NCBI GenBank assembly: GCA_048886685.1
Contig: JBHLKM010000014.1
Coordinates: 1-64,000 of the forward strand
DNA from: Candidatus Hodarchaeota archaeon
Lineage (GTDB): Archaea; Asgardarchaeota; Lokiarchaeia; Sigyniarchaeales; SOKP01
Direction of reading: 5' to 3'
DNA: 64,000 nucleotides
Shown here: one piece after another, positions 710-4,171 of the stretch
Numbering within the stretch: the stretch's first letter is position 1
Layout: the number at the start of each line of letters is the position of its first letter
Program-made: the position numbers and the translations under genes
Notes under the pieces: model-generated
Seen by the model: the letters and a program-made list of their open reading frames with translations, nothing else
Database searches by the model: none
What the model was told of the DNA's origin: nothing

Positions 710-1258
710 ATGAAAATGAGTAGTGAAGAAAGTCAGAAAATAAATGTTAAAGACTGGATAACATTAAGCACTGTAATGATTGGTGCGGTATTAACAATTC
801 TTGCTTTAATATGGCAAGAACCTCCCGATAACGGTATTGTTACCTCTACATTCTTACTAATGCTTTCATTTATCTTCTTTGTTAATTCTGTATCTGCCAA
901 TTCAAAAGCACATTTTGAAGCTAATTCAGGAGATGTCAGTAATGAGCGAATAAAGCGTTTTGTTACTTTTGCAGAATATTCATTTGGCCTAGGTTTCACC
1001 CTTGTGATTACTGGATTTTCAATTCTTGGCTATGAGTATTTGCTGAAATATGAGGGCCGCGAAATTATTACATTAATTCTCCCTATTGCGTTTTTAGTAA
1101 CAGCCTGGATAGTCGTCTTCATATATAATCTTATAAATTATTTTGGTAAACCTCTAGGAGCTATTAGAAGTTTAAAGCGAAATCTATGGATTTTATTAGA
1201 ATTAATTTGCTTAGTAATAATTATATTTGACTTCTTTGAAGTTTTTACACTTCCCTAA
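710..1258 (+). CDS. Hypothetical integral membrane protein (about 5 TM helices)
   Basis: 182-aa ORF with several hydrophobic stretches. Confidence 0.75.
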   Translation: MKMSSEESQKINVKDWITLSTVMIGAVLTILALIWQEPPDNGIVTSTFLLMLSFIFFVNSVSANSKAHFEANSGDVSNERIKRFVTFAEYSFGLGFTLVITGFSILGYEYLLKYEGREIITLILPIAFLVTAWIVVFIYNLINYFGKPLGAIRSLKRNLWILLELICLVIIIFDFFEVFTLP

Positions 1259-1339: not shown

Positions 1340-1635
1340 ATAAAGGGACGAGAAGCTGCTAATGAAAATCCGAGAATTTCCATCAGCGATGTATAGGCGA
1401 TTCATACTTACGTATAAATTTTTCAATGTATTAAATCGTTTTGAATAACAGATCCGAGAACCTATTATTCAAATTCTATATCCGAAGATATAGTTTTTCT
1501 TCCTGTGAGGGAAGCACGATTTTACCAAGTTGCTTTACTCGAAAGTAATTCAATTGGCGCAACACATTGAGTTGCTAATACTACTTCTCGACATTCACAT
1601 AAGATGCGAATTGCTTCACACCATTAGATGTGAAC
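1340..1635 (-). ncRNA. Candidate structured non-coding RNA of unknown class (multi-hairpin, pseudoknot)
   Basis: Nine local hairpins, two long-range stems and a 7-bp loop pseudoknot. G-U wobbles and UUCG/CUCG/GUAA loops favour the minus strand. A TATA box lies about 25 nt upstream and a U-rich tail follows. Confidence 0.7.
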
Positions 1636-1657
1636 AATATATGATTTGAGTGATTCA

Positions 1658-1665
1658 TATTTAAA
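1658..1665 (-). promoter_or_regulatory. Putative TATA box (TTTAAATA) for the structured RNA
   Basis: Archaeal TATA consensus at the expected distance from the first hairpin (G at 1635). The genome is AT-rich, so a chance match is possible. Confidence 0.4.
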
Positions 1666-1744
1666 GGAAACTATTAAGGGGTTATTATACCTTTTTGTCG
1701 TTAGATCTAAAATAGTGAATTTTAAAGTCGGAACACCCAAACTT

Positions 1745-4171
1745 CTATATGAAACATGAAAGATCTTTTTGAATCGATTTTTTGTCATAATCGGACTTTA
1801 ATATTTCATCAAGTTCGGGAAATTCGAAGGGAAAAATGTTTTCAAAAGATCTTTTTAGTAATTCCACATATTTTTTTCTGTCATACTCATGCTTTTTCTC
1901 ATCATATAGATCAGAAAGGATCACTTTTTTCTCAGGAAAATCGGGATCTGCTTCGGCGTTGAGAATAATATAGCGAACATTTTTTCCTGCCGATGCTATT
2001 ACTCCTGAGCGCTCTAACTGCCTTGCGGCAACTGCCTGATAAGAGTTCACCTTGTATTGCGAAGGTCTACGGGAGATCTTTTGTCGAATCGTTAATTCCT
2101 CACGAGTAACAGTACCTGAGTATACTCTTTCTACGTATTCATAGAGCTTTTTCTTTGCTTCTGGAATTCTTTTCACGAACTCATCGACAGTCTTTGCACC
2201 TTGGAAAGTGTCAATAAACGCATATTGAGCATCCTTTACAATTTTAGGTATATCTCTGCGCCTTACCTCAATACCCCTCACCTTAACCTCCCCGTCATTT
2301 TTTATTCCCCAATAATGGCTAAGTGCGGGAACCTCTGGTTCTGCGCGTGAAGGCAGGAAAACAATGACATTAAAAAGCCCATCCCAACTCATAGGAATGC
2401 CAGTGCTTTCGGATATTTCTTTGGCAATTTTTTTTGTGAGCTCTTCGAATTCTTCTGGAGTTCTTCCTTTTGTATCTTGAAGCCACATTGAATCAACAAT
2501 TCCGTGAACAACCCTACACCCGTACTTTTTCGCAACTTCAGCAGATCGCAAGAGGAATTCGCGAGCAAAAGCACATACGGTTTGATGTGCCTCGATTTTT
2601 CCAAAACGGGCATTTTTGAATCCCAAATAACCAAAACTTACTACAAGTACCCATTTTAGAGCAATATCAGTAAATTTGTACCGAAGATCATCATGTTTTT
2701 TGTTATATTCCTTGTAATAAAGTCGTTTGTTTAGAGGTAAGCTAATGGATTTGGAGATGATTCCCTGTCTTTTTGTACATATATGAAAATTAGTGCCCGG
2801 GACTTTAATTCCTGTTCCGTCATCCTTACAGCACTTACAATTAAGCGTCTCAGATGAAATATTAAAGTTAGCCATCAGAGACGGATACATTGAAGAAAAG
2901 TCTAACTCTGCTACTTGATCAAAAACACCAATCAGGGGTTCAAAAATATGACCCCCTCGATCATTAATAATGAGATCCATACCATTTCGAAAGTCTTCTG
3001 GACTCTTTTTGAAAGGTGGGATAAGATGATCTAGTTTATAGGCATTGTAATATTGTATTGATTGAAGAGCGCCTCCAATAGTTATCCTACATAATCTTTG
3101 CAAAGGCACTCGAGAGATTCTCGCGACTTCGATAACTCCAGGTATATTTCCCTCGCTAAAGTGTAAGCTCCCATAAGAAGTAGTGTCTAAATGAAAACGA
3201 CCAGTAAGATATACTTGAGTTTTAGATCGACGCATAATGATTCCGTAGGTCATGTAATGATCAGAGTTTCCTGAAAGGTTAAAAATGCAGTTTTTAAGTG
3301 GAGTTCTGGTACGAGAGAGATATAAATCCTTTGATACATGATTCACTGAAGCTCGTGCAACCAGGTAAGGAAATACAAACTCATCTCCTCCATGTGTGAG
3401 AATGATATCGGGATCCAATTTCTCAATCACCTTACTAATCTTCTTGATGGTTTCCCCTTCATCAGCTTCATCGATCAGGATTTTCCTTTTTCTCTGCCCA
3501 TCTGCCCTTGGGATGTTAGCTTTTTCATCTTTTTCAACAATGCTGACTTCAGCATATGCTAGAGGGTCGTTATGATATGATCTTATTCCGCGTTGCTGTA
3601 TTCTAATATCCAACCAAACAGCTTTTAGAGGAGGTAAATCATAAAACAATTTTTCGTTGTCATCTTTTAATTCAATTGATACCAAACGCATAAAATGCCC
3701 CTCAACGTTTTTCTTCTTTTCAAGTTTCACCTTGAAACCACATAGCGACATTGGAAATAGGTCATTAACATAGAAGTACATCTGAGAGATTGGAAGATCT
3801 GTATTGTATAGTGTAAAAAGACCAATTTCATCGATTTCTTTTATTGTCTTCTTAAATACCGAAGGTTTCGTCACAGAAACCCCAAATATTTTTGTTTTTT
3901 CGTGATCTTCCAGTTTGACATATTTCTCACAGATTCTTGTATCCTTAACATTCTGATGAGATTTGAGGATTTGTTTTAATCTTTTAAAATCTTTGCCAGA
4001 ATGTCGTTTTGGTACGGCAAAAAATTCGGGATAGAAGTCGTGATAGATTTTTACAATCTTTTGCTCTTTGACTGTTTTCACCCAAAGAACAACTCCATTA
4101 CTATAAGTGGAGACATCTAAAAGCCAACCATCAAATTTCCTTTGATAATCCAATTTATTCCTTTCCTTCAA
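1745..4171 (-). CDS. polB2: Archaeal family B DNA polymerase, PolB2 (Dpo2-like) group
   Basis: ELDFSSMYPS motif. PolB2-type variants KWVLVVSFGY and HGIVDS (in place of YGDTDS). Degenerate exonuclease motifs. VRGIEVRRRD. C-terminal PIP-like QKDLSCFI. Confidence 0.88.
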   Translation of the reverse strand: MKERNKLDYQRKFDGWLLDVSTYSNGVVLWVKTVKEQKIVKIYHDFYPEFFAVPKRHSGKDFKRLKQILKSHQNVKDTRICEKYVKLEDHEKTKIFGVSVTKPSVFKKTIKEIDEIGLFTLYNTDLPISQMYFYVNDLFPMSLCGFKVKLEKKKNVEGHFMRLVSIELKDDNEKLFYDLPPLKAVWLDIRIQQRGIRSYHNDPLAYAEVSIVEKDEKANIPRADGQRKRKILIDEADEGETIKKISKVIEKLDPDIILTHGGDEFVFPYLVARASVNHVSKDLYLSRTRTPLKNCIFNLSGNSDHYMTYGIIMRRSKTQVYLTGRFHLDTTSYGSLHFSEGNIPGVIEVARISRVPLQRLCRITIGGALQSIQYYNAYKLDHLIPPFKKSPEDFRNGMDLIINDRGGHIFEPLIGVFDQVAELDFSSMYPSLMANFNISSETLNCKCCKDDGTGIKVPGTNFHICTKRQGIISKSISLPLNKRLYYKEYNKKHDDLRYKFTDIALKWVLVVSFGYLGFKNARFGKIEAHQTVCAFAREFLLRSAEVAKKYGCRVVHGIVDSMWLQDTKGRTPEEFEELTKKIAKEISESTGIPMSWDGLFNVIVFLPSRAEPEVPALSHYWGIKNDGEVKVRGIEVRRRDIPKIVKDAQYAFIDTFQGAKTVDEFVKRIPEAKKKLYEYVERVYSGTVTREELTIRQKISRRPSQYKVNSYQAVAARQLERSGVIASAGKNVRYIILNAEADPDFPEKKVILSDLYDEKKHEYDRKKYVELLKRSFENIFPFEFPELDEILKSDYDKKSIQKDLSCFI

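Follow-up and report, generated by a model that had tools for sequence, protein, structure and literature searches.

A separately transcribed, intricately folded non-coding RNA from a family of Asgard archaea, with a conserved core and variable modules

We found that the intergenic region 3′ of polB2 in the window (that is, the whole stretch of DNA analysed, 64 000 nt from an assembly of a Candidatus Hodarchaeota archaeon) is a real and separately transcribed gene for a non-coding RNA of intricate fold. The RNA, of ∼295 nt, is read from the minus strand at positions 1342–1638 (both ends being approximate), and it is flanked by two convergent ORFs: a 182-aa ORF (orf182; 710–1258, plus strand) and an 808-aa ORF (polB2; 1745–4171, minus strand) which codes, according to Pfam, for a family B DNA polymerase. 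The data show an RNA which is under purifying selection for a complex fold, expressed, non-coding and equipped with its own promoter. We consider it probable that the locus is a gene in its own right, whose product, a stable and abundant structured RNA acting in trans, represents a new lineage-specific family in three genera of one Promethearchaeota family.

Folding of region 1340–1665 gave a minimum free energy of −101.7 kcal/mol on the minus strand, compared with −62.1 ± 4.8 kcal/mol for dinucleotide shuffles (z = −8.26; 0 of 100 shuffles as good), whereas the plus strand only reached a z-score of −1.86 against its own dinucleotide shuffles. Both values agree with an earlier reading of this DNA, made without database searches (the sequence-only reading), which had anticipated a fold better than that of shuffled sequence and had chosen the minus strand from the G-U pairs that form there; moreover, all twelve pairings which it had listed were found in place by a pair-by-pair check. 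No conserved ORF exists in the RNA: stops are present in all frames and the longest ORFs vary between members in strand, frame and place. Since no ORF is kept across members, a protein-coding function was rejected. ARAGORN detected no tRNA or tmRNA gene in the 64-kb window.

Conservation of the fold was assessed on an alignment (A3) of 15 homologs, from three genera, which share the short architecture of this RNA. With the structure of the sequence-only reading, 88.6% of the cells are paired and 34 pairs have changed on both sides, a result unmatched in 500 column shuffles; slid controls paired at 38–43%. Once the structure was corrected by inclusion of a helix P2 and extension of a helix P3 (both described below), 91.2% of the cells were paired and 36 of 104 pairs covaried (slid controls, ∼40%). 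The expectation that the stems would covary was borne out for almost every helix, the exception, and sole failing element of the initial structure, being a poorly kept hairpin at 1559–1575 (57.5% of cells paired on A3). In a second, longer type of the RNA (16 members), RNAalifold predicted 106 pairs, and compensatory changes occur in 32 of these.

Three helices, P1, P2 and P3, are supported across 44 members. P1 pairs 1584–1592 (GUCGAGAAG) with 1347–1355 (CUUCUCGUC) and closes the whole RNA body; its GAGAAG/CUUCUC segment is invariant in 44 of the 44 members while neighbouring, outer pairs covary (GC:33 AU:4 and CG:37 UA:2 UG:3). P2 and P3 covary freely. P2, which was absent from the list of the sequence-only reading, joins strands 1574–1581 and 1391–1398 (1581–1578/1394–1391 plus 1575–1574/1398–1397); it is 94% paired on A3, with four compensatory cells at each of two pairs, and it varies family-wide as GC:22/AU:14 and GC:20/AU:8. 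Where P3 is now drawn, the sequence-only reading had proposed a pseudoknot between the loop of hairpin 1559–1575 (1564–1570) and 1423–1429. That loop pairing is indeed conserved; however, it forms the outer part of a nested helix of greater length, between 1570–1561 and 1432–1423, which replaces the 3′ half of the hairpin and stacks on P2 and P1. P3 is 92% paired on A3, shows compensatory changes in 6 of its 10 pairs, varies across the family (CG:21/UA:16 at one pair, GU:23/GC:13/AU:6 at another) and was found independently by RNAalifold. Because the competing hairpin is unconserved and P3 is a longer nested helix, the conserved topology is nested rather than pseudoknotted.

The 5′ stem-loop domain (1593–1634) had been drawn as two hairpins, 1615–1634 and 1593–1611, which are 94–97% paired on A3. 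It can be redrawn as one long hairpin made of an outer stem (1634–1628/1600–1594), an inner stem (1622–1615/1610–1603) and a GCAA loop; each of these stems is 98% paired, one outer-stem pair reads CG:7 UA:5, and two sequences slightly favour this second drawing. The outer stem is homologous to the single 5′ hairpin of the family, and a 22-nt insertion forms the inner stem with its GCAA loop. Between the two strands of P3 are found a bulged hairpin with a UUCG loop (1525–1557; 94% paired, four compensatory pairs, one of which reads CG:8 UA:6 AU:1) and a three-hairpin junction (1433–1522). The closing stem of the latter (1522–1516/1439–1433) is 79% paired and has four covarying pairs; its hairpins, at 1514–1499, 1493–1476 (with a cUUCGg loop) and 1472–1441 (14 bp, CUCG loop), are 93% paired and have one, five and four covarying pairs, respectively. 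Hairpin F (1400–1419), closed by a GNRA loop (GUAA), belongs to the 3′ core in 43 of the 44 members aligned; its loop is mostly GNRA, its inner stem is 95% paired and its closing pair varies (CG:7 UA:4 UG:3 GC:1). Hairpin G (1358–1387; 13 bp, CUCG loop) occurs in all family types and is 80% paired, with four covarying pairs. The 3′ tail, (U)CCCUUU followed by an oligo-U terminator run (1334–1348), is characterized by a conserved GUCCCUU and a conserved U-run; the latter, 3′ of the last helix at 1344–1334, is the U-rich tail already seen in the sequence-only reading. The universal core of the family comprises the 5′ hairpin, P1, P2, P3, the GNRA hairpin F, hairpin G and the CCCUU tail with its U-run. 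Two other motifs were rejected by inspection: a triple helix in which the pyrimidine tail would bind the purine strand of P1, for which the registers mismatch, and a K-turn within hairpin G, the stem of which is regular.

Conservation extends to a block of ∼100 bp upstream of the RNA, which contains two CGACWWAAA boxes ∼30 nt apart, an element TAATAAYCCCTTAATAG and a TATA box. The TATA box, TTTAAATA (1665–1658), is the box that had been noticed ∼25 nt upstream of the RNA; it is identical in 19 of the 21 members first aligned, the other two having TTTATATA, and its spacing predicts a start near 1635–1641. It is preceded by the upstream element TAATAACCCCTTAATAG (1671–1687), a putative regulator binding site with two TTAATAR half-sites one helical turn apart, which is kept family-wide and is unique to this gene in its own genome. 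Of the two remaining boxes, the proximal one (CGACAAAAAG, 1691–1700) displays a CGAC(A/T)WAAA motif kept in nearly all members, and the distal one (CCGACTTTAAAA, 1720–1731), of the CCGAC(W)TAAAA type and ∼65–95 nt 5′ of the RNA, is kept in members of three genera. A CGAC(A/T)WAAA box ahead of a TATA box occurs at this one place in the 4.4-Mb genome, and a genome-wide search found the combination of promoter boxes nowhere else in it; since the boxes co-occur at the RNA gene alone, a shared regulon was rejected. The block travels with the RNA wherever the gene sits and is conserved at four different genomic locations. Such a conserved and genome-unique promoter argues for a dedicated, and probably regulated, transcription unit. 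By analogy only, the layout of 1658–1731 (minus strand) may be likened to the upstream-element-plus-TATA promoters of eukaryotic small-RNA genes.

Expression was examined in metatranscriptomes. Parts of the stretch are present in eight runs, four of which (three from wetland in 2020 and one from soil in 2022) were mapped to 1100–1950; these represent four studies but maybe only two campaigns, as three of them may share one. In all four runs, the contigs found at the RNA and its immediate flanks are confined to 1346–1621, and cover is zero on 1245–1331 and 1622–1950, i.e. on the spacer, the promoter and the 3′ end of polB2; farther downstream, a relative contributes a single low-depth contig in run X11, which spans 1106–1241. 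Word depth reaches into the hundreds to thousands for all three wetland runs and is 3.5 for the soil run, contig depth being a poor measure of abundance. The RNA contigs cross the whole body at own-sequence identity, with no recurrent internal break. Contigs end exactly at 1346 in three runs and an Illumina adapter abuts 1346 in the fourth, a weak hint that this position is the 3′ end of the RNA. Since cover is limited to the predicted RNA and the flanks are silent, these data show a discrete RNA species, as had been predicted, and not DNA carry-over or read-through from polB2, although metatranscriptome contigs give neither the strand nor an exact level.

Does this RNA belong to a known family? 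None of the 4227 models of Rfam 15, among which are OLE, GOLLD, ROOL, HEARO, 6S, group I/II introns and small ribozymes, matched the 64-kb window at gathering thresholds. A permissive search on the element returned chance-level matches only (E ≥ 2, 15–19 bits), and 15 homologous loci gave no match to Rfam at E ≤ 1. The sequence-only reading had set aside RNase P RNA and SRP RNA, rightly so. The archaeal RNase P RNA model (RF00373; gathering threshold 84 bits) does not match the element, even among hits of E ≤ 10 on 1200–1800, nor does the archaeal SRP RNA model (RF01857). Because the genes for both RNAs lie on other contigs of the genome, at G000:C2:190707–191027 for RNase P RNA (131.6 bits, full length) and at G000:C10:160736–161049 for SRP RNA (L002; full length, 66.7 bits, E = 1.7e-14), a divergent version of either was rejected. 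The score of the SRP RNA is below the Rfam gathering threshold of 96.5, and SRP RNAs of this lineage would therefore escape standard annotation. A 5′ riboswitch, which had been judged unlikely, finds no place here since the next gene is convergent (710–1258, plus strand) and the contigs stop at 1346; neither the own locus nor nine long-type loci have a same-strand gene downstream. Also rejected were a Y RNA, as no TROVE domain (PF05731) is encoded in the own genome (100% complete by markers), and a virus-borne RNA, as the pattern is missing from 2.9 million IMG/VR viral contigs. A full-text literature search retrieved no published description. The own promoter, the confined contigs, the lack of Rfam match and the lack of a paper all agree with the proposal of an undescribed, independently transcribed Asgard ncRNA; judged from these searches the family is new, and it may still exemplify a known functional kind.

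BLASTN in relatives identified full-length homologs at four loci in three genomes. In many more genomes, it matched the 5′ and 3′ 50 nt only, ∼390 nt apart, which corresponds to a longer form with another interior. The distribution was then established with R1, a covariance model of the 3′ 109 nt; because R1 misses a three-unit form of the RNA (see below) in a genome scored negative, its counts are lower bounds. At least 36 of the 52 own-genus genomes have the RNA, as do at least 8 of 42 and 1 of 6 in two sister genera; R1 detected it in none of 19 genomes from the other three families of the order, nor in any of 126 genomes representing 26 other families of the phylum. In several own-genus genomes that are 97–100% complete, neither a relaxed R1 search nor a 5′ pattern with up to three mismatches detected anything; the sole candidate for a divergent copy in such genomes (G063:C12) proved to be a membrane-protein ORF. 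Being missing from several near-complete genomes, the RNA is therefore dispensable or replaceable, and this fits an accessory role better than that of a housekeeping RNP. A pattern scan of 185 579 species genomes yielded 30 loci, 25 of Asgard type and five non-Asgard. The 25 are from metagenome-assembled genomes (MAGs) labelled Promethearchaeota/Promethearchaeia, uncultured archaeon or, once, Thorarchaeota; the named matches are all Promethearchaeota MAGs, and one copy is adjoined by a gelsolin-domain gene, which fits an Asgard origin. All 25 have the 3′ domain (with weak scores in L100 and L087) and the five non-Asgard matches are without it. To date, the family is known from only three genera of a single Promethearchaeota family (Lokiarchaeia-type).

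The size of the RNA is very variable: ∼245, 300, 360 and 673 nt, plus a three-unit form of ∼750 nt. The variable part is the interior between P3 and its return strand. In the own type (∼265–304 nt), it consists of the bulged UUCG hairpin and the three-hairpin junction; in the long type (∼360 nt), it is another domain, made of five hairpins. The RNA of one g23 member measures 245 nt. Two g20 genomes possess a 673-nt RNA which combines the short and the long modules with extra helices (L067:1451–2123, plus strand; L071:1490–2162, minus strand) and which lies directly 3′ of an hsp20/alpha-crystallin-like gene. In two MAGs, the RNA extends to ∼750 nt (753) and is made of three tandem homologous units under one promoter (L100:5990–6770, plus strand; L087:6290–5510, minus strand; fold z = −9.3), with a single global P1 joining the 5′ strand of the first unit to the 3′ strand of the last. 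Another genome, G024, has two complete genes in tandem (L006:1018–1321 and 1530–1833), each with its own promoter and ∼82–88% identical to the query. The family has a conserved core with variable peripheral modules. Known RNP and scaffold RNAs tolerate gain, loss, combination and triplication of modules.

The function that we prefer, and propose tentatively, is that of a protein-binding scaffold or protein-sequestering RNA which would not operate by base-pairing to targets. The RNA would act in trans through its three-dimensional shape: a protein would recognize the sequence-invariant P1 (GAGAAG/CUUCUC) and the 5′ hairpin, the GNRA loop would lock the fold, and the peripheral modules would plug into the conserved core (5′ hairpin, P1–P2–P3, F, G and CCCUU tail). 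This choice was made because the conserved unpaired stretches are short (2–6 nt, which disfavours antisense targeting), no gene follows on the same strand in the own type or at nine long-type loci, P1 and the 5′ hairpin look like recognition sites and the modules are swappable. The mechanism is modelled by analogy on bacterial 6S RNA and CsrB/RsmZ and on eukaryotic 7SK, which are abundant, trans-acting and structured, have regulated promoters and vary in module number between species; there is no homology with them, and the present RNA has neither the rod-with-bubble of 6S nor GGA repeats. Against a protein partner speaks the variability of the neighbours between loci, which include PolB, membrane, Zn-ribbon, hydrolase, gelsolin-domain and similar genes. 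Long-type copies often have a 125-aa membrane ORF on one side and a 159-aa Zn-ribbon ORF on the other; these were rejected as obligate partners, since the own genome lacks the Zn-ribbon ORF and its membrane ORF sits elsewhere.

Alternatively, the RNA could be a purely architectural one, forming putative homo-oligomers in the manner of GOLLD, ROOL and OLE (which do so; PMC12286853), the three-unit variants then being covalently linked protomers. The large size and many helices of the RNA together with the absence of a conserved partner gene, the grouping of three units under one promoter and one closing helix in two MAGs, and the tandem duplication of the whole gene in one genome are all compatible with this model. 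OLE (RF01071), GOLLD (RF01998), ROOL and raiA are, like this RNA, stand-alone, structured, many-helixed, abundant, lineage-restricted and function-unassigned, and were found by comparative genomics. However, they are bacterial or phage-associated whereas this RNA is archaeal and usually ∼300–360 nt long; it has no sequence or covariance-model similarity to them, and its common ∼300-nt form is half the size of GOLLD, ROOL and OLE. We therefore view homo-oligomerization as unlikely.

A ribozyme, self-processing or acting on another substrate, is an improbable candidate too. The compact multi-junction core, long-range helices and conserved GNRA loop of the RNA would suit catalysis, RNase P and group I ribozymes are typically of this size, and the multi-unit transcripts could need processing. 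The resemblance to archaeal RNase P RNA goes further, and includes size, a helix closing the 5′ and 3′ ends, a multi-junction core, long-range helices, a variable periphery and an own promoter; in contrast with RNase P RNA, the present RNA lacks CR-I and CR-V, has another helix order and is missing from many complete relatives. Moreover, it matches no known ribozyme family, its most strongly conserved nucleotides are mostly in helices (P1) and not in junctions, and the uninterrupted contigs described above do not point to self-cleavage.

The sequence-only reading had also envisaged a functional tie to PolB2. The RNA would then be an element within the 3′ UTR of the polB2 mRNA, or would serve the polymerase as an RNA cofactor. 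The gene order polB2 → RNA ← orf182 is found in the own subclade and recurs in a second genus, which makes an inherited rather than accidental adjacency of it, and to that extent the synteny with polB2 was upheld. However, 44 of the 52 genus genomes have a polB2 ortholog, including RNA-negative ones and long-type ones where the RNA is on another contig, and some RNA-carrying genomes have no polB2 match. In genomes with the RNA elsewhere, the long-type ones among them, or with none, polB2 and orf182 abut (spacer of ∼25–40 nt), and the 673-nt form follows the hsp20-like gene. In addition, the RNA has its own promoter, and no contig covers the 3′ end of polB2 or the 100-nt spacer. The tie to PolB2 is thus largely refuted and very improbable. 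As no neighbour is constant, the adjacency looks inherited rather than functional: an ancestral position of the short type, and not an obligatory one. Under the scaffold or sequestering reading, the site 3′ of polB2 would be an inherited place between convergent genes, without functional coupling.

Some features of the site itself can be added. The protein encoded by orf182 (710–1258, plus strand) has no Pfam match and is membrane-protein-like; its gene adjoins polB2 across two genera, with the RNA between them or not. The in-frame TAG flagged in many polB2 orthologs of relatives (L134–L136) is the stop of an abutting small upstream gene, and the polymerase is neither recoded nor broken. At RNA-less sites (L118, L120, L121 and L124–L126), polB2 and orf182 converge across a spacer of ∼25–40 nt. 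Filled sites contain a ∼480-bp cassette with imperfect direct repeats at its borders (1732–1744 and 1248–1266), namely AAGTTTGGGTGTT at the left border and ACTTAGGGAAGTG at the right one, which are clearer in G017 and G003. These repeats may be what an old insertion left behind, or a substrate for later deletion.

A patchy distribution over several different loci and the direct repeats around a cassette whose site is ‘empty’ in relatives could suggest a mobile-element remnant or guide RNA (a MITE, or an omega RNA of an IS200/605 TnpB or of IscB), a reading which is hardly tenable because there is one copy per genome (a single one in the own 4.4-Mb assembly by BLAST and nhmmer, one or two per relative) with no dispersed copies, no transposase, TnpB or IscB gene beside the RNA at any locus examined, no terminal inverted repeat seen, no viral contig with the pattern and a synteny which is stable within clades. 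An extra 34-nt BLAST match (C25:31396–31429) is due to chance and lies inside a 204-aa ORF. The omega RNAs of TnpB and IscB (reRNA; HEARO) are likewise structured, 150–300 nt long and 3′ of a large gene; here, however, the upstream gene codes for a family B DNA polymerase instead of a nuclease, and the RNA, which is single-copy and has a promoter of its own, keeps a stable chromosomal position.

To our knowledge, few RNAs are at once large, intricate and strongly covarying, and nearly all those known are ribozymes, RNP cores or RNA-only assemblies. Beyond the rRNAs, the classical examples of large stand-alone structured RNA in archaea are RNase P RNA and SRP RNA. The present family would be a third, lineage-specific, large structured RNA in this domain, coming from Asgard archaea and expressed in nature. 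Its natural size variants (∼245, 300, 360, 673 and 750 nt) mark the core and the dispensable parts, so that the family lends itself readily to structure determination, partner pull-down and activity assays. It is doubtful, at this stage, that the RNA is the core of an Asgard-specific RNP or RNA-only machine, i.e. a candidate catalytic or self-assembling large RNA with a P1–P2–P3 core and exchangeable modules. Asgard archaea are the closest prokaryotic relatives of eukaryotes; if such a machine does exist, the multi-box promoter would mark dedicated regulation of a non-coding RNA in the closest archaeal relatives of eukaryotes.
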